From Marinicella sp. (lineage in GTDB: Bacteria > Pseudomonadota > Gammaproteobacteria > Xanthomonadales > Marinicellaceae), in the NCBI GenBank assembly GCA_965230295.1, contig OZ246001.1, positions 3,008,001-3,072,000 on the forward strand: a DNA stretch of 64,000 nucleotides. The letters run 5' to 3'. Made by a program: the position numbers and the translations under genes. Under the pieces are notes generated by a model. It was not told the DNA's origin. It worked only from the letters and a program-made list of their open reading frames with translations, and searched no databases. Below, piece by piece: positions 3,638-54,783 of the stretch (position 1 is its first letter; each line of letters opens with the position of its first letter).

Positions 3638-3665
3638 ATCAGTAAAAAGTAAGGTATAAATCAGT
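3638..3665 (+). promoter_or_regulatory. 11-bp-period direct-repeat box upstream of GT4 gene
   Basis: ATCAGT 3638, GTAAGG 3649, ATCAGT 3660. Confidence 0.65.
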
Positions 3666-3733
3666 AATAGAACAGTTAAAAAAATCCAATTATTGATTTA
3701 ATTGATCCTATTGTTTTATATATAGATTATCTG

Positions 3734-5065
3734 ATGAAAAAGTTAAAAATACTGGTTGATGGGTTCAACTTACAATTATCAAAAGGTACCGGAATCAAGA
3801 CTTATGGTTCTACATTATTGGATGCATATCAAAAAATGGGTTGTGAAATTGGCATACTTACTGACAAGGTAATCCCAAAAAGCAGAAAGGTTGTTCTTGA
3901 TGAAATCAATTTTTTTGACAATCAACCGATTCGAAAGAACAAAATTCAAATATTTAATGAATTTATTAATAGCGCCAGAAATATTGCGGGTATAGGGACA
4001 AGTCTTTATATCAAGCCCCAGTTTACAGAAATCAATAAAAAAAACTACTTATCGAAAAAAAGAGGTAAGTACAATCATATTGAAAACATCCCCAACATCT
4101 TCAGTGATGCCTATAAAGCATTCAAAATCTTTGGCACCTTTCCTAATATTAATGCATCAGAACAACCAGATGTTCTTCATCTTACAGCGCCTTGGCCAAT
4201 TAGGATGTCAAAAGCAAAAACTGTACTGACCATACATGATTTGATTCCTTTAAAACTCCCATTTACAACTTTAGATGATAAGTCCTATTTTTATAATTTA
4301 GTAAAAAAGTCTATCAACAATGCTGACGTAATTTTATCAGTTTCAAATTTTACCAAGAATTGCATTATAGATACTTTTGATGTTGATGATGAAAAAATAC
4401 ATGTAACATATCAAAGTATCGACACGAGCAGTTCTTTTAAAAAGTCCAAAAAATCAATGAAAAAATTTCTTAAATCAGTACAGCTGGAGCAGGAAAATTA
4501 TGTATTGTTTGTCGGCAATATTGAACCCAAAAAGAACCTGCCAACTCTAGTTAAAGCATTTTCTACTCTAAAACTAAAGTCTAAAGGCATGAAACTTGCG
4601 ATTGTTGGCTCAAAAGCTTGGATGTCTGAAGGTGAATTAGCAGTCTTGACTAAGTACCTCAAACCTGATCAGTATGAAATATTAGAATATGTTTCTGAAT
4701 CTAATCTGATTACTTTGTATAAACATGCGAGTTGCCTAGTCTTCCCATCAATTTATGAAGGATTTGGATTGCCTGTCTTAGAAGCCATGTACTATAAATG
4801 CCCAGTGATTTGTTCTAATGCTTCTTCAATTCCGGAAGTTGCTGGGGGAGCTGCTCTATATTTTTCCCCTTTAAATGAGCAGGATTTGAGGAAGAAAATG
4901 CAAGACCTAATTAATAATCCTTATAAGAGGTATGAGTTGATTCAAAAAGGGATCAATCAAGCTGAAAAATTCAGTCCTAGTAATTATGCAGAAAGATTAA
5001 TGACTGCATACGGAAGCTTGCATTTTTCTAATGCATCATTGTCAAGAAAGTATTTTTTGTGGTAG
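3734..5065 (+). CDS. GT4 family (GT-B) glycosyltransferase
   Basis: TIHDLIP, VGNIEPKKN, FPSIYEGFGLPVLEAM motifs. Confidence 0.92.
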   Translation: MKKLKILVDGFNLQLSKGTGIKTYGSTLLDAYQKMGCEIGILTDKVIPKSRKVVLDEINFFDNQPIRKNKIQIFNEFINSARNIAGIGTSLYIKPQFTEINKKNYLSKKRGKYNHIENIPNIFSDAYKAFKIFGTFPNINASEQPDVLHLTAPWPIRMSKAKTVLTIHDLIPLKLPFTTLDDKSYFYNLVKKSINNADVILSVSNFTKNCIIDTFDVDDEKIHVTYQSIDTSSSFKKSKKSMKKFLKSVQLEQENYVLFVGNIEPKKNLPTLVKAFSTLKLKSKGMKLAIVGSKAWMSEGELAVLTKYLKPDQYEILEYVSESNLITLYKHASCLVFPSIYEGFGLPVLEAMYYKCPVICSNASSIPEVAGGAALYFSPLNEQDLRKKMQDLINNPYKRYELIQKGINQAEKFSPSNYAERLMTAYGSLHFSNASLSRKYFLW

Positions 5066-5736
5066 GGAGAGGTCAGTGCAATGAACCCAATAGATGTGTT
5101 TGAATTTTAAGTTTATAGCTTGTTTTTATCAATAAAATTAATATGTTATCAGATTTTGATTAAATCTAAAGTACTTCAGACTAACGGCTTCTTCCTAAAA
5201 AGTACATTGAAACAACCTATAGCATAATTATTAATTTTCTTTAATTAATGTTGAATATGAATATCAACAGTTATTCGTTAGCATGAAATAGAATTAATAC
5301 ATGCTTTCTAAAAAATAATTAGCTAGACGATATTTGCAACTAGATTTAATGGTTACTTTTTAATTCAAATTTCGTTAAATATTCTCTTTCATTACCCTTT
5401 TTAGTAGTTCATTTTCCCGCTTGAACACAAACCATAAATTGAAACCTCTTAATTTTGAAAAACTGATGGTCAGTTAGATCAGCCGCACTGGGTTGGCGGA
5501 GCTATGCTGAGTCAGAGAGTTTATGCCCAAGGTGGTGAGTCATGTTGACAGTGATCGTATTCTATTCATTATTGTCTGGAACAAAAATGAATGAAGATCC
5601 AAGAATATTCCTTTAATATAATGTCTCAGCTTAAATTTCTAAATATGTTCTGCGATGATTAATATATTCAATATAATATACCTATTAAATGGTTAAATTA
5701 TCAGTAGAATATAAACTTATTTAAATATATTTTATT

Positions 5737-5850
5737 ATAAAAAAGCAGACCACAACTGTTTAGAAAGGGGGAAAAACATGTGTTGTGATCTGCTTAAATG
5801 GGCTTAACATTGATTCGAGGTGAGTTTAAATTAATGTAAGCTCGATTCAA
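5737..5850 (-). ncRNA. Candidate sRNA A (two hairpins, UUCCCCC loop, intrinsic terminator)
   Basis: Minus strand: hairpin TTGAATCGAG..CTCGAATCAA, then AAGCAGATCACAAC..TGTTT-TTCCCCCTTTCT-AAACA..GTTGTGGTCTGCTT-TTTT. No ORF; lies directly downstream of a 4-unit repeat box. Confidence 0.6.
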
Positions 5851-5875
5851 TTATTGAATTTATTGGAAATTTTAA

Positions 5876-5914
5876 CCTGATCTTTGACTGATTTTTACTT
5901 AATTAAAACCTGAC
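5876..5914 (-). promoter_or_regulatory. 11-bp-period box (4 units) driving candidate sRNA A
   Basis: + strand CCTGAT 5876, ACTGAT 5887, CTTAAT 5898, CCTGAC 5909. Confidence 0.7.
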
Positions 5915-5928
5915 TAGATATACGACTG

Positions 5929-5988: not shown

Positions 5989-7755
5989 TTAAAATGATAA
6001 ACAGTCAAAGCCACTCTGTGAAATGAAGGGGTATTTTTCATCCTCATCAAATGAATTGTTATCTTGTGGATTTATGTCATTTATGCCACTTAATAATTCA
6101 ACAGCACCTTCAATTCTAATGAGCTCATTCAAAGGAGCATCGACGATTGCATTAATTTTGTATCTAAATGCAGCCCCTACAGGCAGATCTACTATTTCAT
6201 CAATATTACCTGTACCTGAATCAAAAGGGCAAACTGAACCACCATATGAATCACAAGTCCAAGAAAGATCTAAATATTCATTAAATGATTCGTATTCGCC
6301 TGGAAAAGAAGTCACTCGGACATTGCTGACATCCATATTACCAACATTAGTGACATCCAGGAAATATGTGGTTTCTTCATTCACACCATTCTGACAATTA
6401 GAAATGGTGACTTTGAGGTCAGGTAACTCGTCATCAAAATTCACGGCATTGATCTGTGGAATGACCAAAGGAAAGTTCTGATCAAGCGTATCGAGCGAAA
6501 ATCCTATTGTATATTCTTGATCTCCATCAGTATCCTCATCATCTTGGCCTTGAACACTGACCTCAATCGGTTGATTCCAGTTAGACTGGTCTAAGACAAT
6601 ATTTTGTTGAACCACTGTGCCTTCAGACATATCAGTTGAAAAAATTGCGATGTTGACATCATAAGCAGGTGCTTGCGTTAAACGGATAGTAAATTCATCC
6701 TCACCGCCCATTTCTGTTGTGTACAGTTCAGATCCATCATAAGTAATAATAAAATCATAAATTGCTAAATCATCCACCTGAAAATCAACTGGAACAGTAT
6801 TGGATTGATTTTGACCTGAATCTTCAGAATAAGCAAAAGCTCTGGCCGGCCCATTTGCGTATTCAATTTGAGACCTACATTCCCAAGAACCATCTGATTG
6901 AACAATTGTTCGGCAAATATCCTCACCAAGTTCACCAGTAACATACAAAGTATCATTTGGAGTTGCTGTGCCTATAAACTTTGGAAGTTTGGTATTAACT
7001 GTTCCATTAGCAGCAGGCCAGATAAACACAGGGTCAACTGTTGGGTAATAGTCTACATCGAATCTGGTCACAACAACATCAGATCGATTATCAGCAACAT
7101 CAAATGCATATGTAGAAAGTGTATGAGCGCCTTCGCCAAAGCCAGCAGGAAAATTACAGCTCCATAATCCATCTGTTCCAACTGTATTACTTAAACAATG
7201 ACGACCTCCGGAGTACATGAAAACTTGGCTTCCTTCGTCACCAGTCCCACTACCTGCTGAAAAGATTTGGTTGTAAAGAAATCCTTCAATTGGTGCCACA
7301 ATGTTTGGAGCCGCAGGTGCCACTGTATCTATAGTAACTTGAAGGGCCTCTGAATGATCAGACTCAACACCACCCACAGCAATTGGAGTTTCAGTATAAG
7401 TGATCATATAAGTGCCGTCTAATAATGGATCTGTTGGATGTATGCTAAATATTGGCGATCCAGAACAAGAACTATCCCCAATCAGAGTATTGGATGCTGG
7501 GGAATCAGAATACAAGTTAACTCGATTACCCACAGTGCATTCAACCCTAAAAGTAGGTTGATTGTGGTTGGTAATGCCATCTCCATTTACACCTGAGTCT
7601 TGCATTAAAATAGGTGGTGGATTCTGAGTCATTTGTTTTAAGCAACTTGAATCTTTTTCACATTGACCAGGTGTTGCAGAAGAACTGAGAGCCCAATGAT
7701 CAGACCACACGGGCCCGCTAATTAAAATCAAAAATAAAAATATACATTTATACAT
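5989..7755 (-). CDS. Secreted Ig-like repeat protein with Calx-beta/DUF11-like C-terminal domains
   Basis: Signal peptide MYKCIFLFLILISGPVWS (ATG 7755, GGAG 6 nt upstream). Bacterial Ig repeats (TNHNQPTF, DTVAPAAP, DGSWEC). Tail FISQSGFD. Confidence 0.8.
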   Translation of the reverse strand: MYKCIFLFLILISGPVWSDHWALSSSATPGQCEKDSSCLKQMTQNPPPILMQDSGVNGDGITNHNQPTFRVECTVGNRVNLYSDSPASNTLIGDSSCSGSPIFSIHPTDPLLDGTYMITYTETPIAVGGVESDHSEALQVTIDTVAPAAPNIVAPIEGFLYNQIFSAGSGTGDEGSQVFMYSGGRHCLSNTVGTDGLWSCNFPAGFGEGAHTLSTYAFDVADNRSDVVVTRFDVDYYPTVDPVFIWPAANGTVNTKLPKFIGTATPNDTLYVTGELGEDICRTIVQSDGSWECRSQIEYANGPARAFAYSEDSGQNQSNTVPVDFQVDDLAIYDFIITYDGSELYTTEMGGEDEFTIRLTQAPAYDVNIAIFSTDMSEGTVVQQNIVLDQSNWNQPIEVSVQGQDDEDTDGDQEYTIGFSLDTLDQNFPLVIPQINAVNFDDELPDLKVTISNCQNGVNEETTYFLDVTNVGNMDVSNVRVTSFPGEYESFNEYLDLSWTCDSYGGSVCPFDSGTGNIDEIVDLPVGAAFRYKINAIVDAPLNELIRIEGAVELLSGINDINPQDNNSFDEDEKYPFISQSGFDCLSF

Positions 7756-7817
7756 AGTCACACTCCATACACACGTTAATTAAGAGTCTCTATGTTAGGC
7801 CTAAACCAAAAGAAAAA

Positions 7818-7845
7818 CTTGACTATAGCCTGATCAATGTCTGAT
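7818..7845 (-). promoter_or_regulatory. 11-bp-period box
   Basis: CTTGAC 7818, CCTGAT 7829, TCTGAT 7840; TAACAT -10 lies 20 nt downstream (7792-7797). Confidence 0.7.
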
Positions 7846-10070: not shown

Positions 10071-10104
10071 TGTGTAGATAAAATAAGTGTGTAGATAAAA
10101 TAAG
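10071..10104 (+). repeat. 17-bp tandem duplication immediately before the regulator start codon
   Basis: TGTGTAGATAAAATAAG twice (10071-10087, 10088-10104). Confidence 0.85.
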
Positions 10105-10106
10105 GG

Positions 10107-12401
10107 ATGCAAACTTCTCAAGTTAATATAATTAATACTCCTTTTAAAGTTGGTGATTTTATAGTCAACCCTTCCTTAAGGACTATTACTAACAATAAAA
10201 AAGAAGTAGAAACCGTTCAGCCGAAGGTTATGGAACTGTTGTGCTTTTTAGCCAGTCATCAAGGCGAAGTTGTTAAAAGGGACACCATATTTGACTATGT
10301 ATGGAAAGATACTTATGTCAGTGAAGATGCGATGCACAGAACGGTATCATTGGTACGAGTGGCGCTGAATGACAATCCAAAGAAACCTGAGTACATAGTT
10401 ACAATTCCCAAAGCAGGGTATCAACTGATTGCCCCAGTTGAAATTGAAGGGAAGGAAACTGCACAACAAGATGATATTCATTATAAAAGGGCGTTTCTGG
10501 TTTTATTACCAGCATTTGTACTGTTATGGTTTTTGGTTCAATATTACACCCAACCCTCATATGCAGAAGACACAAGGGTCAGTTTTATTCCAATTAATTT
10601 GACTAAAAATGTTACATCTGAAAATTCAGATGAGTGGTTGTTTGAAGCAGGCCTTGTTTATTTAACTGAAATGATTGGGAAAAACAGCGATATCAATGCC
10701 AGAGCCCCGGTTCGTGAGTGGCGTCACAGTGAAAACAGTTCAAATTTGGCTATCAGCTTAATCGATAATGATAAAGCAGATTTGGTTGTTTTGGCAGATG
10801 TTGGAAAAGAAGAAGAGTTTTTTATATCTACGGTGCAAATCAGAGGAAGTAACGGAATTGTTGGCGAGCATCAATTCAAATCAAACTCAATCAACAGATT
10901 GATGGGTGACATCAATAACTGGGTAGGAGAGAGAGTCAGTGAGGATCAAATAGTGGTTGGCAACGATTTGATTGAGGAACAATTCCCCGAGCTCAGTGAT
11001 GATGATTATGCGGTAGAAAGTTTTTTAAGAGGGCTGTCAGCACAGCTACAAGGAGACGCAGGAAAAGCCATCAATTTTTTTGAGACGTCCATAGAACAAG
11101 ATCCTGATTTTCAATTGGCATGGTATCAGTTATCATTGGCAGAGAGGTTACAAGGTAATTATCAGAGGTCGATGGGAATATTAAATTCTCTAGAGAATTT
11201 GAAGAATGGTACATTTACTCATAGAGTTGCCAATGCAAAGGGAAATCTACTTTGGAGAACTGGAGAATATGATAAAGCTTTGGCTTCTCACGAAGTAGCG
11301 TTAACACATGCAAAAGAAGCAAAAAATCTTGATCATATAAGAAAATCTCTAGCAAACATAGCTTTGGTGAATTTAGAGTTGGGTGATACTCAAGCAGCAA
11401 GAAAAGCGCTTGATGAAGTGTTAACAATATTTAATGAAGAAAAACACGTAAAGATTCTGGGATATACTTACAATACATATGCTCGTTTGGAATATGAGGA
11501 ATATAATATAGCCGAAGCCATCGAAATGTCAAAAAAGGCCATAAATGCATTCTCATTGGAAGGAAATAGACGGGCGGAAACGAATGCAAGAGCCAGGCTT
11601 GGTGGTTATTTAATAGATATGAATCAATTTTCTGAAGCGGAAACCATTGTAACTGAAACGCTTTTTTTCAGAGAAGAATCTGATGACCGGTCTGGAATGA
11701 TTTCAAGTTATAATAAATTAGGCAAAATCTCTTTGGCTACAGGAAAGTTTGATGACGCTGAAAAACATTATATGAAAGTAACTTCACTCAGCAAGGCTTT
11801 GAAAGATAAAAATGATGAAGCTGAAAGCTACCTGAATTTAAGTCGTGTGTTTCTGATTAGCCAAGATTTACAGAAAGCCAGACTATACATTCAATTATTT
11901 AAAGATAATTCAGGTTCTGATGATGTGTCAAACATATATGCCAAAATACTTGATTTGCGTCTTGCAATTGGTGAAAAGAACTTTGAAAGCGCCCAAAAGA
12001 TTGTTGATGAGTTTGATGAACAAGATTTTCACTTGTACTACCTTTACAGTGGTGATTTTTATTATGAAACAGAAGACTATGAGTCCGCAGAGATTCAATA
12101 TCGAAAATTTCTAAATGAAATGCAGGCTAGAGGTAGAAATATTGAAATTGTTACAGGGTTTAACAGGTTGACGAGGATGTATTTGAAAACTGATATGAAA
12201 AAAGCGGCCTCAATCATAGACCAAACAAAATCATTGAATCCATTTTCATATCCTTACCTTAAATACAAGGCCATGGTAGCAAAAGAGAACAACATAGTTG
12301 ATGCTCAATCTTTGCTAAACGAACTTAAGTTATCGTCCAATGATTTTTGGTCGCCAGATGATCAAATTCTTCTGGAGCAGTACACAAAACTAATGGATTA
12401 A
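10107..12401 (+). CDS. CadC/ToxR-like membrane transcriptional regulator: OmpR/PhoB-type wHTH + TM helix + periplasmic TPR sensor
   Basis: QPKVMELLCFLASHQGEVV..VW..VSEDAMHRTVSLVRVALND..YIVTIPKAGYQL, then TM FLVLLPAFVLLWFLV, then long TPR array. Confidence 0.9.
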   Translation: MQTSQVNIINTPFKVGDFIVNPSLRTITNNKKEVETVQPKVMELLCFLASHQGEVVKRDTIFDYVWKDTYVSEDAMHRTVSLVRVALNDNPKKPEYIVTIPKAGYQLIAPVEIEGKETAQQDDIHYKRAFLVLLPAFVLLWFLVQYYTQPSYAEDTRVSFIPINLTKNVTSENSDEWLFEAGLVYLTEMIGKNSDINARAPVREWRHSENSSNLAISLIDNDKADLVVLADVGKEEEFFISTVQIRGSNGIVGEHQFKSNSINRLMGDINNWVGERVSEDQIVVGNDLIEEQFPELSDDDYAVESFLRGLSAQLQGDAGKAINFFETSIEQDPDFQLAWYQLSLAERLQGNYQRSMGILNSLENLKNGTFTHRVANAKGNLLWRTGEYDKALASHEVALTHAKEAKNLDHIRKSLANIALVNLELGDTQAARKALDEVLTIFNEEKHVKILGYTYNTYARLEYEEYNIAEAIEMSKKAINAFSLEGNRRAETNARARLGGYLIDMNQFSEAETIVTETLFFREESDDRSGMISSYNKLGKISLATGKFDDAEKHYMKVTSLSKALKDKNDEAESYLNLSRVFLISQDLQKARLYIQLFKDNSGSDDVSNIYAKILDLRLAIGEKNFESAQKIVDEFDEQDFHLYYLYSGDFYYETEDYESAEIQYRKFLNEMQARGRNIEIVTGFNRLTRMYLKTDMKKAASIIDQTKSLNPFSYPYLKYKAMVAKENNIVDAQSLLNELKLSSNDFWSPDDQILLEQYTKLMD

Positions 12402-12616: not shown

Positions 12617-12644
12617 ATCAGATAATAATCAGGACTTAGTAAGG
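12617..12644 (+). promoter_or_regulatory. 11-bp-period box
   Basis: ATCAGA 12617, ATCAGG 12628, GTAAGG 12639; TAATCT -10 at 12665-12670. Confidence 0.75.
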
Positions 12645-12680
12645 TGTTGTTCTGGTTGAGGTCGTAATCTATCAACTTTC

Positions 12681-12726
12681 GGAAACATGAGTTTTATTCG
12701 TTATCTGAATGTAACCTCATGCTTTG
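12681..12726 (+). promoter_or_regulatory. Conserved 5'-UTR hairpin (copy 1 of 3)
   Basis: AAACATGAG-TTTTATTCG-ttatc-TGAATGTAAC-CTCATGCTT; related hairpins at 19463 and 32014. Confidence 0.5.
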
Positions 12727-12787
12727 CAGTTGGTACTTTGTCAAACATTGCAAAAAGTACATTGATTAATTAAGAGAAGGAAAAGTT

Positions 12788-13789
12788 ATGAATAGTTCAA
12801 GAGGTTTTAAGAAATTAAAAGGTTTGGCGTCTGCCGGCGCATTGGGATTTGCGGGCATGTTGGGAGCAGGCACCAACCGGGGAGGAGGGAACACAGTTGG
12901 TACTTCATTTTCATTGACTGGTGACAATGTTGTATGGAATGGTTTCTATAATGGGAGATCGTTCCCCTCATCTCATGCAGTCACAACCACCAATGGAGCC
13001 GAATACACCACCGAAACTACCCCTGCCTATTGCATCACTGATGCAGTGATGTTCGAAAACTCAAGTACTTACAGTAATGCTTTTGATTGTGCGATGATTT
13101 TAGCTGTAGATGGAATTCTGTTTATGAACCCTGATTCAAGTGTGACATTAGATGGGAATACGGTAACATCAGATGTGGTTACAGACATCACTCCAGGTAT
13201 TGATGCCCAGATCCAATACCGTATATACACAGATCGAAAAGTGGTCAGAGGTTTGTACTCATTGACCAACACTACATCAAGCAGTATCGATCTCAGTGCA
13301 GCCATTTTGGGTGATTATGGTTCTGATCTCGACACCAATATTGAAACATCCAGCAATAACAATGAAACAATAGAAAATTCTGATTTGTGGTTCATCACCA
13401 GCGATCTGTTTGATTCACGCATTGCAGACAAAAACACAACCCAAGGAAGTGGAAGTAGTTATGGCCCAGTCGTGACTACTACAAGATATGGGGTTGGTGC
13501 TGAAGTCATTCCCACCAACGCCTTAACCCCGATTAATGATGGTGCTGTCTATGGTCTACGATATCAGCTTAATATTCCAGCTGGGACAACGGTTCGAATT
13601 ATGGTGTTTCATGAATTGGGTCTACCTGTACTTGCTAGTATTCCAAATCAAGTTGCAGACGCTGCTGATTTTGAATCAATGACATCATTAGATGTGGCTG
13701 GGTTGATAGATGATTTGGATGATGGCATAAGGGATACTGTTGTGAATTATGGTGACAGTGACGTCATTTTCAATAGTGGTTTTGAATGA
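12788..13789 (+). CDS. Exported protein with atypical Gly-rich leader; paralogue of 19587..20567
   Basis: Leader KGLASAGALGFAGMLGAGTNRGG, beta-rich body, tail DVIFNSGFE. Confidence 0.8.
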   Translation: MNSSRGFKKLKGLASAGALGFAGMLGAGTNRGGGNTVGTSFSLTGDNVVWNGFYNGRSFPSSHAVTTTNGAEYTTETTPAYCITDAVMFENSSTYSNAFDCAMILAVDGILFMNPDSSVTLDGNTVTSDVVTDITPGIDAQIQYRIYTDRKVVRGLYSLTNTTSSSIDLSAAILGDYGSDLDTNIETSSNNNETIENSDLWFITSDLFDSRIADKNTTQGSGSSYGPVVTTTRYGVGAEVIPTNALTPINDGAVYGLRYQLNIPAGTTVRIMVFHELGLPVLASIPNQVADAADFESMTSLDVAGLIDDLDDGIRDTVVNYGDSDVIFNSGFE

Positions 13790-16553: not shown

Positions 16554-16708
16554 ATTTCTCTCACCAAAAATTAACATATTTAATTAAAGTTTGAATGACT
16601 GAGTACACCACGTATCAACTAAAGGAAAGTGATATAGGCGTCAATAACAAATTCATTCAATATAATTAGAAATTGTCTTTTTATTATGCAAACCACAGCA
16701 AGAAAACA

Positions 16709-16736
16709 CCTGATTAAAGTCAACGTTTTTCCTGAT
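16709..16736 (-). promoter_or_regulatory. 11-bp-period box
   Basis: CCTGAT 16709 and 16731 (22 bp apart); CATAAT -10 at 16683-16688. Confidence 0.7.
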
Positions 16737-19398: not shown

Positions 19399-19426
19399 AT
19401 CAGATAATAATCAGGAGTTCATAAGG
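19399..19426 (+). promoter_or_regulatory. 11-bp-period box
   Basis: ATCAGA 19399, ATCAGG 19410, ATAAGG 19421; TATTAT -10 at 19447-19452. Confidence 0.75.
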
Positions 19427-19586
19427 TCTTATTCTAGTTGGGGCGGTATTATTTCATTCGATGAAAACATGATTCTTGTTCGAAAATTGAACCAAACCAC
19501 ATGGTTATCATCGGTGCTGTCAGAACTGGAAGTAAATAGTTTTTTTCGACTTAAAGAATTTGGTGAAATGTATACGGGGAAATTCA

Positions 19587-37732: not shown

Positions 37733-37807
37733 GTTTTCCCTACTGAATTAAAATTAAATAAATGATGGGTCAGGTTTTCGAATAACAACTGGTCTAAACC
37801 TAATTTT

Positions 37808-39448: not shown

Positions 39449-39502
39449 GGCTTTACCTTCTGTATTAATGGACTTAATTATGGAATCAGTCACAAAAATA
39501 AA

Positions 39503-39530
39503 ACTGATTGAACCCTTATTTTTTGCTGAT
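39503..39530 (-). promoter_or_regulatory. 11-bp-period box
   Basis: ACTGAT 39503, CCTTAT 39514, GCTGAT 39525; CATAAT 39477-39482. Confidence 0.75.
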
Positions 39531-42572: not shown

Positions 42573-42624
42573 GGCTTTACCTTCTGTATTAATAGATAAT
42601 TATGGAATCAGTCACAAAAGAATT

Positions 42625-42652
42625 ACTGACCGAATCCTTATGTTTGACTGAT
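42625..42652 (-). promoter_or_regulatory. 11-bp-period box
   Basis: ACTGAC 42625, CCTTAT 42636, ACTGAT 42647; CATAAT 42599-42604. Confidence 0.75.
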
Positions 42653-44136: not shown

Positions 44137-44189
44137 TGAATTAACCTGTGGGAAAAAAACTTGATTATGGGTTCGGTCATGAAAAAATA

Positions 44190-44217
44190 ACTGATCGAAT
44201 CCTTATCTTTAGCTGAT
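44190..44217 (-). promoter_or_regulatory. 11-bp-period box
   Basis: ACTGAT 44190, CCTTAT 44201, GCTGAT 44212; CATAAT 44164-44169. Confidence 0.75.
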
Positions 44218-47136: not shown

Positions 47137-47190
47137 TGGGATATTCCTAAATTTAGCAATTATTATTTTCTATAGTTCCCTGGATTAATA

Positions 47191-47228
47191 ACTGATCAAA
47201 AACTGATTTAGTGATGATTTTTTCTGAT
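47191..47228 (-). promoter_or_regulatory. 11-bp-period box
   Basis: ACTGAT 47191, ACTGAT 47202, GATGAT 47213, TCTGAT 47223. Confidence 0.7.
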
Positions 47229-47340: not shown

Positions 47341-47368
47341 ATCAGGTAAAAACAAGGGTTTAATCAGG
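47341..47368 (+). promoter_or_regulatory. 11-bp-period box driving candidate sRNA D
   Basis: ATCAGG 47341, ACAAGG 47352, ATCAGG 47363; GATAAT -10 at 47389-47394. Confidence 0.75.
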
Positions 47369-47400
47369 ACATTATCCTGATGTTTCTCGATAATGACCGT

Positions 47401-47540
47401 TAAGGAGCAATGCTTTGGTACACACACTCTCTCTATTGCGTCGCTCTTTATTTGTTCCGCAAGGGTGTCGAGGCTTTTACATTCACCCCCTTATGTACCT
47501 CGTCACTCTTGTGACTCTATCCATACGAGCATTTATTTTT
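47401..47540 (+). ncRNA. Candidate sRNA D (CU-rich first loop, UCACCCCCUU apical loop)
   Basis: GCAAT..ACACACACTCTCTCT-ATTGC; long stem GCAAGGGTG/CACTCTTGT, CGAGG/CCTCG, TACAT/ATGTA with loop TCACCCCCTT; U-rich end. Confidence 0.55.
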
Positions 47541-48879
47541 AGACAAACCCTTATCTTGCTTTGTACCCCAACAGGACATGCCATTACTTTGTTAAAAGAA
47601 TTTTCAAAACCATATACAGGGTGTTGTCATTAGTTGTTAATTATTTCTGTTATTTTCTTCATATCTGGCCATTTGAATTAAAGGGTTCAATTTAATTTTG
47701 TTATTTGTTTTGAATACTGTAAAGGTTGTTAGTAGCCCAGTGAGAAATGGTACTTTTCTACATCGTAGGCTATCACAATGGATTAATTTCTTGGCTGTAT
47801 CAGTTAAGTCTCTTTAACAATGCTGATTCATTACGGCCGTTCTGAATTTGCCATTAAAGCTGTTATTAAATGTGATTTATGTTGGAGTGCCAGGTTGAAT
47901 AAATGGTTATCTAACACTCTGTTATATAACCCTGAAGAACATAGCTTCGTAAGTATATTCAGTCCTGTAGAAAAATTCGATTGTATTTGGGCCTGTTTCT
48001 TGGTATTCAATCTCTAGATCAAGGGAGCGTTCAGCCACAGCGCTATTAATCAATGAGGCCAAAAATTTGCCAAAATAATTGTGGGGGCAAGTGATTAACT
48101 AGACTTAACACTTCGAAGTGCCTTCAACCTGATTCTATATTTGAAATAAAACCTATTGCCTTCCCTTTGATGACTAAGCTCATTGGGTGTTTTCAACTTC
48201 TCTTTTAGTAAAATGTTAACCTGCATCTTTTCCTCCATGTACATGCAGTACATTTACCTTGCATTATCAATCAAGATTTTTATGCATTGCATGCTACAGC
48301 AAATCCGAATGATGCTCTGTTTCATTTTAGGAGAAAATATACTTTGCCATGGTTAAGTTCTTTGGTGGAAAGGACATTCCCTCTTCAAGGAATTTGTTTA
48401 TGGGTAATCTTGGATGTCCTATTAATAAGCATCTTAGAGAGGTTGTTAACCGTTCAGTTAACGATTGCACTAAGTGAACATTGGAATAAAGCTAATTTAG
48501 AATGATTTAATGTGCTGAAGTTAATTTTGAATTAATGACTAGATTAATTTTTTACATAGGTAAAATTTGTCTGATGAATCCTTTTCAAGTAGCTTTTCTG
48601 CAAGTGTATCTAATTGGTTTTTCTGAAAGATTGTTTCTTAACACAACGAAAATAAAGTCCATTATAAATGAAGTTTTTCTAAGCACATTAATGGTATCAA
48701 GACCCTTGAAGTCTTTTTCAATACTTTGGTACCTCAAGGGTCTTACATAGAATCTAAAATTTTCCATTGCTTATTTTGAAAAGTTCTGATTAGATTTTTC
48801 AACATTAAAAATCAAGTTACTTACATTTATTTAGATTAATTGTTAAAAAATAATACAAGATATTTTTTAACAAACAAGC

Positions 48880-50160
48880 TCATTCATCAAAACCGTTTTT
48901 AAATATTACAGATTCTGCATAATTGACAGTTATAAGTCTATCAATTACATTGTCAGCAGGAAAATTCTCAGAAGCTATTGTGGCATTGCCAGTAACTAAA
49001 ATATAATGATCATTACTACTGGAACCCGAAAAGTCGAAATTCACGTTGTACGTCACAACTGAGCCCCCATTGAGTGTTGGTATGTAAGATATAATCGCGT
49101 CAGTGCCTGAACCACATGAAACACCATCATTATCACATGTCCAAGTAATATTAGAAACTTCGGCTGAGGCTATAAAAAAACTTACATCAATGCCATCTAA
49201 TATAGGTATAATCCCAGAAGAGTTTCTTACAATAACCGTCAGATTAGGATCGTTAGCATCAATAGAATCTACACCAGTTGGTAAATAAATTGAAACATCT
49301 CGTGCAACACAATTACTACCATCATCAATGATCGACCAACCCTTATTAGTAATTAAATCATCTCTTGGGACGGAAGCGCAGTGTGGAGTATCTCCTGCAT
49401 TCAAGTTAACGTTTTGCATTACGTCTTGTTCTGAAAAGCTATGCAACATTTGGCTGTAGTTAAGCCTTGATAGACCGGAAGTAGGGTAGAACATTTCACC
49501 CATTGTGGTTACATTTGTCACATCCCAATTTTCGATATTAGGGTTGGCATCCGTTGCATTACCAAATAGATAACTCATATTAGTAACTTGAGATGTATTC
49601 CAGAGATCTACTATTGGATTGAAACCGTGTGAACTTACAAACATACCCTCTAATGTGATTGCAGCAGATGTATCCAAATGAGTCAATTCAAGATACGGTA
49701 ATGTAGAGTAAGCAAACGCATACTCGAAACTTGATACTTGAGAGGTATTAGGCACATCTGTGGCAGAAAAAAATGTACCATTTAAGATCGAAAATGCATT
49801 TTCCCATGATTTCCATTCAATATCTCCCCACTGTTTTAATTCGGTAAATTTGTTATGCGCACCTGGGGAGTTGCCCATGTTGGGGTTTGCAAATGCACCA
49901 TAGATTTTGACTTCATAAGTACCCGGATTTTGATAAATGTGGTTAACGTCCCCGGTTTGATTTAGAAGTTCTGGGGTTCCGTCACCGAAATCTATTCTGT
50001 AGTTGTATTCGGATAGATGATTTTGATCTCTAGGAATCACAAGATTCAAATCAGATGGATCTACAGTCCATTCGAATATGAAAGGCTCTGCCTGTGCATG
50101 TGCAGAAGTTGTCATGAGAATTGAAAATAAAATAAAAATCGTAAAGTATATAAGTTTCAT
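48880..50160 (-). CDS. DUF285/BspA-like surface protein with PKD-like N-domain
   Basis: IDFGDG..HIYQNPGTYEVKI, QWGDIEWKS, WNTSQVTNM repeats; tail VIFKNGFDE. Confidence 0.9.
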   Translation of the reverse strand: MKLIYFTIFILFSILMTTSAHAQAEPFIFEWTVDPSDLNLVIPRDQNHLSEYNYRIDFGDGTPELLNQTGDVNHIYQNPGTYEVKIYGAFANPNMGNSPGAHNKFTELKQWGDIEWKSWENAFSILNGTFFSATDVPNTSQVSSFEYAFAYSTLPYLELTHLDTSAAITLEGMFVSSHGFNPIVDLWNTSQVTNMSYLFGNATDANPNIENWDVTNVTTMGEMFYPTSGLSRLNYSQMLHSFSEQDVMQNVNLNAGDTPHCASVPRDDLITNKGWSIIDDGSNCVARDVSIYLPTGVDSIDANDPNLTVIVRNSSGIIPILDGIDVSFFIASAEVSNITWTCDNDGVSCGSGTDAIISYIPTLNGGSVVTYNVNFDFSGSSSNDHYILVTGNATIASENFPADNVIDRLITVNYAESVIFKNGFDE

Positions 50161-50212
50161 AATGTTACTACCTAGTAAAAAAAATTATTATGGGTGGTGT
50201 GTGAATAAATAA

Positions 50213-50240
50213 ACTGACTCAAACCTGATTTTTTACTGAT
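50213..50240 (-). promoter_or_regulatory. 11-bp-period box
   Basis: ACTGAC 50213, CCTGAT 50224, ACTGAT 50235; CATAAT 50187-50192. Confidence 0.75.
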
Positions 50241-50255
50241 GATTGATTCAACGTT

Positions 50256-52217
50256 TTATTCAAAGCCGTTTTGGAATATAAGTTCATAAGTAACAGGAAT
50301 GTTCTTGTTAAACATGTTGTCAGCAGGATAACCATCAGCACCTGTAAGCATTGAGACGCTACCCAAAATATTCACTTCTTCGCTTTCAGCTGCCGATGTG
50401 TCAAAATGGATGGTAAAAGTTGTCCCTGTATCAGGCGGCATGTTCATAAGCGAATATGAAATCTCACCAGATGTTCCACCAACTCCAACACATGCAGGGT
50501 CGAAATCACATGTCCAGGAAATATTTGATGTATTGATAGGGTCTAGTGTAATGAGAACTTCTATGTCCTCTGTTTGGTAGCCTGAATTTTCAACATATAC
50601 GATCAACTCAGGAGCATATCCATTCAGAGTTTGAATGTTTTGTAACACAGCTCTGGCATCAGGAGTATAGCAACCAATCGGACCTGCATCGATGATGGTC
50701 CATCCTTTTAGATTGATTAAATCGTCTCGTGCAGAACTCGACTCGCAGTAAGGTGTACCATCAGCATTGAAAGTGACATTACTCATTACATTTTGTGAAG
50801 CGAGGTTAGACAGCCAGCGGTCATAGTTTCTTGTTGAAAACCCTGGTATCAATGACGTGTCGAAGTAACCAAACATGTTAGTCATGTCACTGACATTTTG
50901 CACATCCCAGAACTGAAGGTCCGGGTTAGCTTTTGGAGTGTGTAAAAACATGTGGAACATGTCAGTCACATTAGAAACGTCCCAATTGGTCACATCAGGA
51001 TTGGCTTCGTCAGCTCCAGCAAACATGGCATTCATAGTGGTGACTGATGATGTATCCCAATTTTCAACTTCGGGATCGGCAACATTCGCGTCAATGAACA
51101 TTCTACTCATATCGACCACATTGGAAGTATCCCATTTTGATACGTTGGGGTTAGCAATTTCAGCACTTGCAAACATAACACTCGTGGTGGTGACAGATGA
51201 TGTATCCCAATTTTCAACATCAGGGTTGGCGCAACAAGTTCCACTGAACATGCCGCCAATGGATTCTACATTTGAAATATCCCATCCACTGACATCTGGA
51301 TCGGCATCAGAAAGACTGAACATTGAAGACATGTTAGTTACATTTGATACAACCCAACTACTCACATTCGGAGTGAAATTGACCCCAAAAAACATACCTG
51401 ACATGTCGGTTATGTTTGAAACATCCCAACTTCCTACATCATAAGTGCCAGTGGAGTAATAAAACATGCTCGACATATTTGTTACACTTGACAAATTCCA
51501 GTCTCCTACATCTGCTTCTCCAGATGCGCCAGCAAACATAAAGCTCATATTTTCAACACTACTTGTAATCCAATCGCCAGTATCAGGTACAAATGACTGA
51601 ACCCCATCGTCATTAATTCCTCCTGTTTCTCTGAATGTACCGCGCATATTTGTTACATTACTAACGTCCCATGAACCAAAGCCCCGAATATTGCCAGCTG
51701 CTTTCCAGAAAGCATGATCCAAATTTCTTGCAGATGACATGTCCCAATCACTTAGATCGACATCAACTTCACAATTTCCACACATATATGTAAAGTCAGT
51801 TACTTGAGATAGGTCAGGTGGGTTTTGTAGTGCAAATGTAATGCCTTTCGCTTCTCTGAAAGCGGATTTCATAGACAACCAGGGCATGTCCATTTCAAGT
51901 ATGCGGATTATTTGGCGGTTCCGAGCAGAGCGAGAGCCAAATAGATAAGGATTTGGAAAATTTCCAGTGATCCTAACAGTATAGATTCTAGGGCTAAAAT
52001 ATGTGTACTGAACATTTCCAGTTTGCCCAGTGAGTTCAGGATTACCATCATTATCGAGATCTACATTAAAATTGTATGGAAGGCTAGGATCAGTCCTTAT
52101 ATCGAGAGTTAATCCGTCGGGTAATTGGTCATTCGCTTCGAATTCAAAGACGAAATCAGCATTTGCCGAGAACGATACAAGAATAAGAAATAAAATGGAA
52201 GAAATTGTATATTTCAT
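50256..52217 (-). CDS. DUF285/BspA-like surface repeat protein
   Basis: About 12 WDxSxVxxMxxMF repeats; RBS GAGGTGA; tail LIFQNGFE. Confidence 0.9.
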   Translation of the reverse strand: MKYTISSILFLILVSFSANADFVFEFEANDQLPDGLTLDIRTDPSLPYNFNVDLDNDGNPELTGQTGNVQYTYFSPRIYTVRITGNFPNPYLFGSRSARNRQIIRILEMDMPWLSMKSAFREAKGITFALQNPPDLSQVTDFTYMCGNCEVDVDLSDWDMSSARNLDHAFWKAAGNIRGFGSWDVSNVTNMRGTFRETGGINDDGVQSFVPDTGDWITSSVENMSFMFAGASGEADVGDWNLSSVTNMSSMFYYSTGTYDVGSWDVSNITDMSGMFFGVNFTPNVSSWVVSNVTNMSSMFSLSDADPDVSGWDISNVESIGGMFSGTCCANPDVENWDTSSVTTTSVMFASAEIANPNVSKWDTSNVVDMSRMFIDANVADPEVENWDTSSVTTMNAMFAGADEANPDVTNWDVSNVTDMFHMFLHTPKANPDLQFWDVQNVSDMTNMFGYFDTSLIPGFSTRNYDRWLSNLASQNVMSNVTFNADGTPYCESSSARDDLINLKGWTIIDAGPIGCYTPDARAVLQNIQTLNGYAPELIVYVENSGYQTEDIEVLITLDPINTSNISWTCDFDPACVGVGGTSGEISYSLMNMPPDTGTTFTIHFDTSAAESEEVNILGSVSMLTGADGYPADNMFNKNIPVTYELIFQNGFE

Positions 52218-52266: not shown

Positions 52267-52449
52267 TTAAAGAGATTCAAAACATTTGATTTCACTGAGT
52301 AATAGGATTGACCGAAGAGAAGACTCAGAGTCGACAATCACAAAATAATGCATGACATTTTTGAGGGTGCAAATGGCCTGATCACCATTTTTTAAGAAGA
52401 TTCTGATGTTGGCATTGTGTTTAAATTGTTCTAGTAATTGATTTCTCAT
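52267..52449 (-). CDS. Small Hfq/Sm-like fold protein (paralogue 4)
   Basis: 43/60 identical to 30936..31124; IRIFLKNG motif; first gene of a probable operon with the DUF285 gene. Confidence 0.6.
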   Translation of the reverse strand: MRNQLLEQFKHNANIRIFLKNGDQAICTLKNVMHYFVIVDSESSLRSILLLSEIKCFESL

Positions 52450-52509
52450 GGCACACCCTTAATTGGTCGTTAAACTTGAAACCAGTTTAAGATGCATGGT
52501 TTATATTGA

Positions 52510-52537
52510 CCTTACCGAAACCGGATTAATATCTGTT
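52510..52537 (-). promoter_or_regulatory. 11-bp-period box
   Basis: CCTTAC 52510, CCGGAT 52521, TCTGTT 52532; TAAACT -10 at 52484-52489. Confidence 0.7.
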
Positions 52538-52732: not shown

Positions 52733-52771
52733 ATCAGGTATTAATTAAGTAAAGGTCAGCAATAGATCAGG
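52733..52771 (+). promoter_or_regulatory. 11-bp-period box
   Basis: ATCAGG 52733, GTCAGC 52755, ATCAGG 52766; AATAAT at 52792-52797. Confidence 0.7.
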
Positions 52772-52845
52772 ATTATGATTTAAATATATTCAATAATTAA
52801 ATTGATGCAATGGATGTGTCTTATTAATTTAGTGAATTACAAATC

Positions 52846-53952
52846 ATGAGTGTGTATATGTTGAAATCATCAAGTCGTATCGAAAAGAAGGTTTTGCCTC
52901 CATATTTTTTAAACCTCCCAGTTTATATGCTGATATATTTTGGTTTATTAACTATCCCTAGATCAGCCTTTCCAGAAACACCTTCTTCTGAATATAAATC
53001 AGATCCAGATTACTCTGTTGTTATAGATGGGATACCTAATCAATACGATGATGTGTTGAACACACCAGAAATAGATAAAGTGGATTTGGAAGCATTGATA
53101 TGGGAACCAGAAGTGGCCGGTATCTATCCGGCAATCATTATGCTACATGGGGCAGGTGGCTTGTATTACCAAAGTGATGACTCATGTGATGATGCTGACA
53201 GGAGTTGTTGGGGGTTATCTGGCAAATTTCGATACTGGGCTCATTTATTAAGTAAAGGTCACCCATACGATTATTCGGATAAATTTATCATCATTGCAGT
53301 TGATTCCCACACCCCACGAGGTTATGACCATCATGGAGTGTCTCAAATAGCCAGTGGATCCAGACCTGCAAATGTCACAGCTCATCTTGGTAGGCCTTGG
53401 GATTTTTATGCAGCACTGAATTATTTAAAGTCACGAGATGATGTGATTCAAAATGAAATTTTTGCTCTGGGGTTTTCTGATGGCGGTGGGGGGGTGTTGA
53501 GTGCAATCGCTGCATCAGATCAAGCCGTTATGGTTAATGAATCTGATTATTTTCATGGAATTGATAACAACTCTGAAGAGGGGCGTGCAGTAATGGCCGA
53601 TGATTCAGTCAGCGGCGCTGTAGTTTTTTATCCAAGTTGTGGTCTTCAAGGTTATTTTAATGGTGCATACACTCATTTTGGACAACTATTGGTCCAAGTT
53701 GGCAGTGATGATGACATCACTGTGCCGTCAAGATGTATTGAACGCCAATCTGAATCCATTGGTTTAGGAATAAGCCCGACTGATTTTGTTATTGATATTT
53801 ACGAAGGGGCTGATCATGGTTTCGATTATTTTGAATCTGAAACTCAAAATGCCTGTATTGCAACAGAAAAGGCTATTTCATTTTTTTCAGCAAAAGTAGG
53901 TGACAGCATTTTTTCATCTCACTTTAACTCTAATGTTTGTGCAGAAAATTAA
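52846..53952 (+). CDS. Dienelactone-hydrolase-family alpha/beta hydrolase, exported
   Basis: PAIIMLHGAGG, nucleophile GFSDGG, VGSDDDIT (Asp), YEGADHGFD (His); tail DSIFSSHFN. Start position uncertain. Confidence 0.85.
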   Translation: MSVYMLKSSSRIEKKVLPPYFLNLPVYMLIYFGLLTIPRSAFPETPSSEYKSDPDYSVVIDGIPNQYDDVLNTPEIDKVDLEALIWEPEVAGIYPAIIMLHGAGGLYYQSDDSCDDADRSCWGLSGKFRYWAHLLSKGHPYDYSDKFIIIAVDSHTPRGYDHHGVSQIASGSRPANVTAHLGRPWDFYAALNYLKSRDDVIQNEIFALGFSDGGGGVLSAIAASDQAVMVNESDYFHGIDNNSEEGRAVMADDSVSGAVVFYPSCGLQGYFNGAYTHFGQLLVQVGSDDDITVPSRCIERQSESIGLGISPTDFVIDIYEGADHGFDYFESETQNACIATEKAISFFSAKVGDSIFSSHFNSNVCAEN

Positions 53953-54166
53953 TCGCCAGCTTTGAAATGATCCGTTTTGTGCTGAGAATTAAGATAGGTT
54001 GAGAGTGAAGTAACCGAGAATGTAAACTAACTTGAGTACGCCTTGGTTGATTATATTTTGAAGACAACGTAACGTGATACATTTATAAATCAAGGGTCAA
54101 CTAAAATCGGGTGTGTGCGCTGAAGGGCTCCCTATCCATTGAAGCCCCAGAAGCTTGCTTATTTGG

Positions 54167-54697
54167 TCATTCCAGTACAGCCAGTAAGTGATCAAACCCT
54201 TTACTGCTGGCGATTTCTGCTGCCGATAAACCCTCGGTGGTTTTAATGGAAGCATCTGCGCCATGGTCAACCAGGCTTCTGGCAACCTCTGCATGGTTAT
54301 AAAATACGGCGTACATCAAAGCAGTCCACCCATCTGATGTCGTTATATTCATATCAGCACTCATGTCGATCAACAACTTGGCTGTATCGTGATGGCCATT
54401 CGAAGCGGCAAAATGCAAAGCTGTCCAATCGCTGCTGTCGATTTTGTCGATTTCCGCACCATGCATTAGCAACATTGAAACAGTGTCAGTATGACCTGCC
54501 CCGGCAGCATATGACAACAAAGAAACATTTTCCTTTTCAGACACCGTGTTTACATCAGCACCATCGATGATGGCTTTTTCTAAAAATTCAGTTTTGCCAT
54601 TATAAGCGGCACTGATCAGCTGTTTGTCAGTGGTTCCCCCACAAGCTTGAAGGATGATTAAAGTAAAGCATACAATGCTTAAATATATAAATTTCAT
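54167..54697 (-). CDS. Ankyrin-repeat lipoprotein
   Basis: Lipobox ILQAC; TALHFAASNGH, TALMYAVFYNH repeats. Confidence 0.9.
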   Translation of the reverse strand: MKFIYLSIVCFTLIILQACGGTTDKQLISAAYNGKTEFLEKAIIDGADVNTVSEKENVSLLSYAAGAGHTDTVSMLLMHGAEIDKIDSSDWTALHFAASNGHHDTAKLLIDMSADMNITTSDGWTALMYAVFYNHAEVARSLVDHGADASIKTTEGLSAAEIASSKGFDHLLAVLE

Positions 54698-54755
54698 TTG
54701 ATTCTCTCCTGTAACTATTTACAGCTGCCAGCTTAATACAGAGCTATGGTATTAC

Positions 54756-54783
54756 CCTGACTTAAACCTGATGAATTCCTGAT
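54756..54783 (-). promoter_or_regulatory. 11-bp-period box (near-perfect)
   Basis: CCTGAC 54756, CCTGAT 54767, CCTGAT 54778; TAAGCT -10 at 54730-54735. Confidence 0.8.

Follow-up and report, generated by a model that had tools for sequence, protein, structure and literature searches.

PhoB is described as binding head-to-tail to 11-nt direct-repeat units, in which it reads CTGTCAT, and as contacting the C-terminal part of σ70 (PMC4415409), and ToxR-type proteins are described as activating transcription from the membrane through contact with RNA polymerase (PMC6733452). Here we analyze a 64,000-nt stretch of a Marinicella genome (hereafter the window; positions G000:C1:3008001–3072000 of the single-contig genome G000, 4.008 Mb, 44% GC) in which some 30 candidate promoters carry tandem boxes of the form ATCAG, spaced 11 nt apart and ending 20 nt before the −10 hexamer, together with two candidate regulators of these boxes, P0001, which is encoded in the window, and R1436, which is encoded elsewhere in G000. 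The promoters occupy an island between approximately 3.6 and 55 kb of the window, where the GC content is 30–42%, compared with 44% for the genome. Coordinates of the boxes and of P0001 follow the numbering of the window, and those of R1436 and of other G000:C1 features follow the numbering of the genome. The activator-box design is of a known winged-helix kind; it departs from the known systems in its core sequence, its 20-nt distance, how many units it has, the sensor domains of its candidate regulators, and how densely its targets are packed.

As in the pho box, the units described here are 11 nt long and consist of a core followed by approximately four less conserved bases, and the boxes occupy the place of an absent −35 element. 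Unlike the pho box, the core is ATCAG rather than CTGTCAT, and there are two to three units (up to five positions) rather than two. The pho box lies 10 bp from the −10 element, whereas the proximal hexamer here ends 20 nt before it, one turn further upstream. The candidate regulators also differ from PhoB in that they have no receiver domain and are predicted to be membrane-anchored. The initial annotation of this DNA had proposed activation of the PhoB type, and this proposal stands as far as the direct repeats of activator style are concerned, but it does not extend to the Pho regulon or to the geometry of the pho box. We rejected the Pho regulon as the identity of this system given the ATCAG core and given a separate PhoB-like protein (G000:C1:458153) that keeps the PhoB helix DRTVDVHVLRLRKAL and is not adapted to these boxes.

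The means by which membrane-anchored transcription regulators locate their targets and activate them are described as poorly understood (PMC10269533). P0001 and R1436 resemble ToxR, TcpP, and CadC in that an N-terminal CadC-type winged helix is combined with one hydrophobic segment and a predicted periplasmic sensor part; in contrast to those proteins, the sensor part is composed of TPR repeats or of a TolB-like β-propeller, the box sequence is different, and approximately 30 promoters in 51 kb constitute a far denser target set. The membrane-anchored regulators that have been studied have few targets, and ToxR is said, in work of Goss and colleagues from 2013 (Goss et al.), to recognize a direct-repeat element.

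SARPs such as AfsR of Streptomyces are described as binding direct repeats spaced by 11 or 22 bp, the 3′ one of which lies a constant 8 bp from the −10 element of a promoter whose −35 element is poor; large SARPs carry TPR, and a SARP is defined by a BTAD domain that follows the winged helix (PMC10936776). The boxes of the window share with SARP boxes the direct repeats of 11 or 22 nt, the fixed distance to the −10 element, and the poor −35 region, and P0001 also has TPR; however, the gap is 20 nt rather than 8 bp, a hydrophobic segment is present, and the phylum is different. P0001 lacks a BTAD domain and is therefore not a SARP; as no BTAD was found among the Pfam families of either P0001 or R1436 and the gap is 20 nt, we rejected this assignment for both proteins.

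The PmrA regulon is likewise composed of one winged-helix regulator and many genes for exported proteins, and PmrA of Legionella and Coxiella acts through a tandem repeat that keeps a constant distance to the −10 element. Unlike the candidate regulators of the island, PmrA is a classical response regulator, with another box sequence and with targets scattered over the genome. The membrane-anchored regulators VtrA and VtrB control the island that encodes type III secretion system 2 (T3SS2), in a cascade that acts on a secretion machine, unlike the system described here, and we know of no 11-nt box design for these two proteins. PmrA and CpxR are described as regulating numerous type IV effectors (PMC3814349), and membrane and secretion genes of the Vibrio parahaemolyticus T3SS2 island are described as being expressed at the membrane (PMC9977878).

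Period, Phase, and Number of the Boxes

Same-strand pairs of [AG]T[CA]AG in the window peak solely at spacings of 11, 22, and 33 nt (36, 18, and 10 pairs, respectively), and each of the remaining spacings from 5 to 44 nt is represented by only 0–11 pairs. The pattern RTMAGN6RTMAG has 36 matches, compared with an expectation of 1.89 ± 1.43, and none of 100 dinucleotide shuffles reaches 36. A −10-like hexamer, defined as NAnWWT with a match of at least 4/6 to TATAAT, lies exactly 20 nt past the proximal box in 14 of 26 box chains, and any other distance within 8–35 nt is found in at most four chains. The initial annotation had described RT(C/A)AGN repeats at an 11-bp period with a fixed 20-nt gap to the −10 hexamer and had suggested a position weight matrix (PWM) scan with spacing statistics; both analyses were run, the period and the gap are borne out, and all 18 of the −10 coordinates that it listed (from 16683 to 54730 in its order) coincide with sites that we identified.

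The consensus is aaATCAGnnAAAAATCAGGnTTnnATCAGGTnTTT-N-cATAAT, with information concentrated in TCAG and ATAAT. Per-column information divides the 11-nt unit into a conserved core, approximately aaATCAGg, and a less conserved A/T-rich tail, and some arrays skip one unit, which results in a box spacing of 22 nt. We recognize 30 candidate promoters (table 1), 29 of which were found by the PWM; the remaining array (34734–34809) was missed by the PWM and was read from the sequence. Three strict boxes are present in 17 candidates, two in seven, one in four (plus 4-of-5 matches), and none in two, the weak or decayed sites 37456 and 37793. Based on these counts, 24 candidates are solid and six are weak or decayed, and the earlier figure of about 30 promoters, although equaled by the number of candidates, is slightly generous when at least two strict boxes are required.

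Position, Independence, and Quality of the Predicted Promoters

Though open reading frames (ORFs) of at least 150 aa cover 72% of the region, 27 of the 29 PWM sites have no overlap with them, and one site located "inside" a long ORF reflects an over-extended ORF with a GTG start. A co-oriented ORF starts within 130 nt of the −10 element at 25 of the 29 PWM sites, often at a distance of 26–35 nt. The other four sites have no plausible ORF nearby. The −10 hexamers match TATAAT in at least four of six positions in 26 of 30 candidates, CATAAT being the commonest, and the best TTGACA match at a spacing of 16–18 nt averages 1.93/6, compared with 2.57/6 in shuffled controls, which indicates that there is no −35 element. 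A good −10 element without a −35 element is the profile of promoters that would be unable to fire without an activator. With the −10 hexamer set at −12 to −7, the hexamers of the boxes are predicted at −38 to −33, −49 to −44, and −60 to −55. The earlier suggestion that the proximal unit sits at approximately −38 to −33 and replaces the −35 element is supported by the fixed phase, the lack of a −35 match, the intergenic location of the sites and their orientation toward the downstream gene, and the conservation of this design beside a regulator gene in related genomes.

When 100 nt of non-box sequence were compared for each promoter, ungapped identity had a median of 31%, and grouping at 50% identity or more left 25 flank groups among the 30 promoters. 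Gene duplication fails to explain the boxes given these unrelated flanks, and the statement that the boxes precede unrelated genes is upheld. Several target genes are nonetheless paralogues, among them seven DUF285 genes and three FG-GAP genes.

A Conserved Regulator Gene Adjoins Box Arrays in Related Genomes

R1436 (G000:C1:1436200–1438317; 706 aa), which belongs to the core genome, is composed of a Trans_reg_C domain (residues 26–98), a hydrophobic segment (LKLAVILAGIILLGILGF, read by eye), and, C-terminal to it, PD40 matches that correspond to TolB-like β-propeller repeats. Orthologues with 57–67% identity are present in nine of 40 relatives. An array of three to four boxes lies in the divergent intergenic region beside R1436 in G000 and beside the orthologue in seven of the nine genomes (G005, G012, G017, G018, G020, G024, and G033; G010 was left out of the check), where it points at either a secreted esterase gene or a gene for a 380–390-aa secreted protein. 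The array of G006 likewise lies ahead of that esterase gene, on a different contig from the R1436 orthologue. The 20-nt gap is exact in eight of nine R1436-type arrays from nine genomes, and the gap of G020 is 19 nt as counted by hand. The proximal box of these arrays is [ATG]TCA[GAT]G and the hexamer is TAAGAT, TACAAT, TAATAT, CATACT, or TAAACT, and the spacers differ. The recognition helix SPNTLQRSIAQLRKALGDDG is near-invariant in seven aligned R1436-type sequences (G000 and six orthologues), with two substitutions in G020. A model built from the arrays of eight relatives alone, with no G000 sequence (R2), matches the window 24 times with E ≤ 1, and 19 of these matches fall on box promoters; given that this model finds the sites of the island, the island boxes belong to an operator class that travels with R1436-type genes. 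The combination of Trans_reg_C and PD40 is found in Atlas clusters of 50–119 members.

On the regulator side of the same intergenic regions, between the R1436 orthologues and the arrays, seven genomes share a second conserved element, ATTGTAACTAAAT, which is often followed by TTTTTAACCAATTGATA (L054 2100–2199, with matching spots in L015, L017, L021, L036, L062, and L063). This element may be the promoter or operator of the R1436-type gene itself.

The second candidate, P0001, is the sole Trans_reg_C gene of the window. It matches the Pfam models Trans_reg_C and TPR, and its best NCBIfam match is the model of the CadC N-terminus, with E = 6.7e-25, below the family cut-off; the hydrophobic stretch AFLVLLPAFVLLWFLVQYY was read by eye, and the TPR matches are C-terminal to it. 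Both P0001 and R1436 have CadC-like N-termini and no Response_reg match. Their winged helix–turn–helix (wHTH) cores are mutually closest among the 13 G000 domains compared (37%), and of the 23 Trans_reg_C genes in G000, only these two adjoin a box site. We did not identify close relatives of P0001; matches reach 27–28% in collections of genome and metagenome contigs and at most 33% in the 40 related genomes. G000 alone has both P0001 and the expansion of boxes, which constitutes a single observation. A 17-nt direct duplication (GTGTAGATAAAATAAG, present twice; window 10071–10106) immediately precedes the P0001 start codon.

Distribution of the Boxes across the Genome and Its Relatives

The spacing of boxes over the whole G000 genome has no 11-nt peak, and 12 of the 19 strict triples of G000 fall in the 100-kb bin that contains the window. 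A PWM scan of G000 identifies 42 sites above 18 bits, 29 of which are in the window, and no site exceeds 16 bits in a Markov shuffle. Outside the window, small clusters of sites are found at 2.68 and 3.69 Mb in addition to singletons, and these sites likewise precede genes for secreted proteins. Each of the 40 related genomes has 0–3 strict triples, compared with 17 in G000. A profile built from 25 window sites has 39 matches in G000 and 1–6 in each of 24 genomes of the same family, and 1 match in total over 16 genomes of other families, a contrast to which base composition contributes. Several box sites in the relatives adjoin genes that encode winged-helix proteins.

Thirteen FG-GAP loci of the relatives yield two box matches with E ≤ 0.011, the stronger of which (L069) is not upstream of an FG-GAP gene and the other of which (L074) is unplaced. 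This outcome argues that the boxes were not inherited with the FG-GAP family. An FG-GAP paralogue cluster of G000 (G000:C1:3.79–3.85 Mb, at least 15 matches) has a box site only at 3851906; given that this cluster is almost devoid of boxes, the boxes follow loci and not the gene family. Word-based literature searches returned no paper naming these boxes, and prior work on the boxes or the proteins is possible.

Proposed Function and Identity of the Regulator

What is observed is the motif together with its phase, position, and conservation, and the fact that it is linked to a regulator gene. We propose, with a probability of approximately 0.65, that the boxes are operators of one or more activators with an OmpR/PhoB-type winged-helix (Trans_reg_C) domain and that the promoters are σ70 promoters lacking a −35 element. 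Two to four protomers would bind head-to-tail on one face of the helix, one per 11-nt unit; the protomer at the proximal hexamer (approximately −38 to −33) would substitute for the missing −35 contact, and the activator would thereby recruit σ70 RNA polymerase to the cATAAT hexamer located exactly 20 nt downstream. We posit that the activator is a membrane-anchored one-component regulator of the ToxR/CadC type, either P0001 or R1436 or both; we infer binding, activation, and the identity of the acting protein from sequence. P0001, with or without R1436, is a possible regulator to which we assign somewhat less than even odds, and action of R1436 alone, or of another regulator, is in each case somewhat less likely.

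The targets are mainly genes for signal-peptide proteins (DUF285/PARCEL, FG-GAP, Ig-like, CarboxypepD_reg, and hydrolases), and the system therefore looks like a sensor-controlled surface or secretome program. In its most specific form, one membrane-tethered activator, P0001 or R1436, would fire approximately 30 promoters without −35 elements in 51 kb, nearly all of which would drive signal-peptide proteins, half of them with an IFxDGFE tag at the C-terminus (discussed below). We offer this version tentatively and regard it as unlikely to hold in full. If it were true, the island would be a self-contained "secretome cassette" in which sensing, transcription at the membrane, and export are spatially coupled in a transertion-like manner, and no transmembrane transcription regulator would be known to have a denser regulon.

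Irrespective of which protein acts, the analysis predicts an operator grammar in which ATCAG units recur every 11 nt and stop 20 nt short of the −10 element. This grammar has spread to approximately 40 promoters in G000, and the analysis provides a predicted regulator–operator pair, conserved among relatives, for the widespread and unnamed Trans_reg_C–PD40 family. Approximately 30 predicted promoters are thereby annotated, and a putatively co-regulated secretome is defined in an uncharacterized accessory region. With one or two regulators that would serve some 40 promoters, the system is a convenient test case for binding, phasing, and recruitment at the membrane.

Several points weigh against this interpretation, and we are cautious in assigning a regulator on their account. 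Concerning the promoters, six of the 30 candidates have one strict box or none, two of the 29 PWM sites have no downstream ORF of at least 50 aa, and two others have only a distant ORF. The PWM was trained on the same sites, so that for the count of 42 sites in G000 only the shuffle control is independent. Concerning P0001, its adjacency to boxes means little in a region that has a box array every ~1.7 kb, and its recognition helix, EDAMHRTVSLVRVAL, differs from that of R1436. No significant box was found near the full-length TPR regulators of the relatives that most resemble P0001 (at most 33% identity), the best match having E = 0.09 over nine loci of ~5 kb and one of 16 kb. Concerning R1436, the array adjacent to it in G000 scores only 10.7 bits with the island model, and the island sites score only 6–17 bits with the R1436-type model; judged by these scores, the two sets of sites are related and not identical. 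In addition, genomes without an R1436 orthologue also have good box sites, such as a site of 27.7 bits in G015 beside a different wHTH–TPR gene, which suggests that more than one paralogue may read such boxes. In this G015 site (L059; G015:C16:54001–72000), GTCAGT is followed after 20 nt by TAAGCT upstream of a gene that encodes a 922-aa secreted PD40/Flg_new_2 protein, and the gene for a 759-aa wHTH–TPR regulator converges on this box-preceded operon.

Alternative Explanations

The alternative that survives best is that R1436 is the sole activator of all ~40 box promoters and that P0001 regulates something else. The boxes are tied to R1436-type genes in seven relatives and in G000, and G006 has an R1436 orthologue and no close relative of P0001, yet its boxes precede the esterase gene and a homologue of the G000 gene at 1236711. 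Moreover, the promoter that adjoins R1436 in G012 and G017 is found in G000 at 3694363, among sites of the island type. However, the rise in strict triples, from 0–3 in each relative to 17, is seen in the only genome that bears P0001, and the cross-scores between the island and R1436-type sets of sites are weak. We therefore consider exclusive control by R1436 to be possible and not probable.

Binding of the boxes by a classical two-component response regulator of the OmpR family is improbable. Direct repeats 11 nt apart are described as the classical signature of this family (PMC4415409), and of the 23 Trans_reg_C genes in G000, about a dozen encode proteins of 220–265 aa with a C-terminal Trans_reg_C domain, one of which (response-regulator type, G000:C1:3075710) lies about 12 kb beyond the rightmost box promoter. 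None of the response-regulator-type genes adjoins a box site, however, nor do they have a conserved linkage like that of R1436, and the PhoB-like protein of G000 keeps the PhoB helix.

Still less probable is that the boxes serve a repressor or silencer as operators from which it blocks the promoter, or that they are anti-silencing sites in AT-rich foreign DNA. The composition of the region (30–42% GC vs. 44% for the genome) would fit such a role, and ToxR-type proteins are described as countering H-NS (PMC6733452). The lack of a usable −35 element and the exact phase to the −10 element across genomes favor direct contact with the polymerase, as in the activator model that we prefer, over a repressor or silencer. 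Finally, a system with no dedicated protein is highly improbable, whether phased A-tracts were to form curved, UP-element-like DNA, for which the helical phasing of the A-rich unit tails speaks, or ATCAGG were to serve an alternative sigma factor as its −35 element with a 20-nt spacer: the information sits in T-C-A-G and not in A-tracts, a sigma factor leaves the two to four tandem copies unexplained, a 20-nt spacer is outside the usual −35/−10 range of sigma factors, and no sigma factor was found among the subset of window ORFs scanned against Pfam.

Gene Content of the Island

According to Pfam and NCBIfam scans of the window ORFs, the island encodes mostly signal-peptide proteins, including seven DUF285/PARCEL-repeat proteins and three FG-GAP proteins in addition to Ig-like, CarboxypepD_reg, and PKD proteins. 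Other products are a GT4 glycosyltransferase, a TPR-sulfotransferase, a DLH-type hydrolase, an ankyrin lipoprotein, and two hemerythrin-like proteins, and several very small ORFs are also present. The predicted promoters and the candidate regulator of the window are listed in table 1.

Table 1. Predicted Box Promoters and the Candidate Regulator Gene of the Window (window numbering)
Coordinates	Strand	Feature	Downstream gene or ORF	Remarks
3638–3702	+	Box promoter	GT4 glycosyltransferase gene, 3734–5065	Boxes 3638, 3649, 3660; PWM 31.4; Pfam
5850–5903	−	Box promoter, look-alike of 52744–52797	No ORF ≥50 aa	PWM 36.4
7792–7845	−	Box promoter	Big_13/DUF11 secreted protein gene, 5989–7761	Start 30 nt past −10; PWM 39.0; Pfam
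10107–12401	+	Candidate activator gene P0001 (764 aa)		CadC-type winged helix 37–107; hydrophobic segment ~129–147; C-terminal TPR repeats
12617–12670	+	Box promoter with ~90-nt conserved leader	333-aa secreted protein gene, 12788–13789	
16683–16736	−	Box promoter, boxes 22 nt apart	FG-GAP gene, 14943–16577	Best match to R2, 16.6 bits
18743–18807	−	Box promoter	FG-GAP gene, 17022–18614	
19399–19452	+	Box promoter with conserved leader	Gene for 335-aa paralogue of the 12788–13789 product, 19560–20567; then TPR-sulfotransferase gene, 20623–22812	
23348–23401	+	Box promoter	CarboxypepD_reg/Ig-like gene, 23429–25363	
25833–25886	+	Box promoter	1309-aa CarboxypepD_reg/fn3 gene, 25914–29843	
30574–30638	−	Box promoter	Hemerythrin-like gene, 30102–30572	
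31160–31213	−	Weak box promoter	62-aa ORF, 30936–31124	One strict box; PWM 22.9
31651–31704	−	Box promoter-like site	No convincing ORF; nearest (61 aa) 339 nt off	PWM 36.8
31950–32003	+	Box promoter with conserved leader	168-aa four-helix-bundle (hemerythrin/Rsd-like) gene, 32114–32620	
33303–33356	−	Box promoter	165-aa ORF, 32699–33196	
34263–34316	−	Box promoter	70-aa ORF, 34020–34232	One strict box
34364–34417	+	Box promoter	Small ORF, 34445–34630	
34734–34809	+	Five-position array	Split EAL gene, 34848–35309	34734, 34745, 34767, 34778, and degenerate 34756; TAGACT at 34804
36634–36687	−	Box promoter with CATAAT	No ORF ≥50 aa	
37425–37478	−	Very weak site	92-aa lipoprotein-like ORF, 37111–37389	No strict box; PWM 18.6
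37762–37815	−	Degenerate site, probably decayed copy of a DUF285-type promoter		No strict box; PWM 33.4
39477–39530	−	Best-scoring box promoter	DUF285 gene, 37808–39448	PWM 57.7; R1 43.3 bits
40972–41025	−	Box promoter	DUF285 gene, 39548–40942	
42599–42652	−	Box promoter	DUF285 gene, 41028–42572	
44164–44217	−	Box promoter	DUF285 gene, 42655–44136	
47165–47218	−	Box promoter	HpiC1-like/DUF285 gene, 44458–47136	
47341–47394	+	Box promoter, then ORF-free stretch		Leader-like first ~190 nt
50187–50240	−	Box promoter	PKD/DUF285 gene, 48880–50160	
52484–52537	−	Weak box promoter	60-aa ORF, 52267–52449, probably reading on into DUF285 gene, 50256–52217	One strict box; PWM 31.8
52744–52797	+	Box promoter	DLH-type hydrolase gene, 52846–53952	
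54730–54783	−	Box promoter	Ankyrin-repeat lipoprotein gene, 54167–54697	

Genes for denitrification and respiration adjoin the island on the right. At the left edge, an S8 peptidase gene (1381–3168) has no counterpart in the 23 congeneric genomes searched, which indicates that the accessory DNA runs beyond the window; we looked for the left border of the accessory region and did not locate it. Rfam at gathering thresholds has no match in the window, and the window contains no tRNA.

C-Terminal Tail, Leaders, and Small Proteins

A tail of the form ...[ILV]F-x-x-[GD]-F-[ED] ends 109 of the 3113 ORFs of at least 150 aa in G000, compared with none of 3113 for an internal control segment. Its bearers, with endings such as ...DLIFADDFE and ...VIFANGFE, come from unrelated families and include the products of window ORFs such as 12788–13789, 14943–16577, 25914–29843, 41028–42572, and 48880–50160; over G000, the tail is present on 17 of the 32 ORFs of at least 150 aa that have a box promoter. 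The DNA pattern that encodes the tail, followed by a stop codon, is found in 38 of 41 genomes of the order, and a reversed control has 0–2 matches. The tail matches no Pfam or NCBIfam model, and a word-based literature search found the tag strings in no paper. On the basis of its sequence, the tail looks like an undescribed sorting or secretion tag.

Three box promoters have in common a leader of approximately 90 nt past the −10 element (12671–12787, 19453–19559, and 32004–32113), with the pattern GAAAACATGAGT...CTGAA...CCTCATG...GGTGCTGT and a CATGAG/CTCATG inverted repeat; the ORFs behind this leader belong to two unrelated families. The region past box promoter 47341–47394 (47395–48850) comprises 1.4 kb with no ORF of at least 80 aa, and its first ~190 nt resemble the mutually identical leaders of the box promoters at G000:C1:1629144 and 2683840 and, more weakly, the leader at 3699347. 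This stretch may represent what is left of a pseudogene, or it may be transcribed as non-coding RNA.

The proteins encoded at 32114–32620 (+) and 30102–30572 (−) are paralogous four-helix-bundle proteins, each behind a box promoter. The Pfam model Hemerythrin matches above its cut-off, and Rsd_AlgQ reaches 34.0 bits against a cut-off of 35. We rejected a reading of the 168-aa protein (32114–32620) as an Rsd-like anti-sigma factor given the sub-threshold Rsd_AlgQ match and a structural model (pLDDT 81.7) that is a plain four-helix bundle. The Foldseek matches listed for this model are designed bundles and the hemerythrin-like DcrH (E ≥ 0.09), with no Rsd among them, and only three homologues of the protein were found.

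Within the split EAL-domain gene noted in table 1, the reading frame is divided over two ORFs of 153 and 67 aa (34848–35531), and a fragment of an IS3-type transposase orfA (HTH_Tnp_1; 33742–34011) is located 0.8 kb to its left. Four ORFs of 60–76 aa, each behind a box promoter, form two similar pairs (30936–31124, 52267–52449, and 34020–34232 on the reverse strand and 34445–34630 on the forward strand). They match no Pfam family, and their alternating hydrophobic residues suggest a small β-barrel, perhaps Sm-like.

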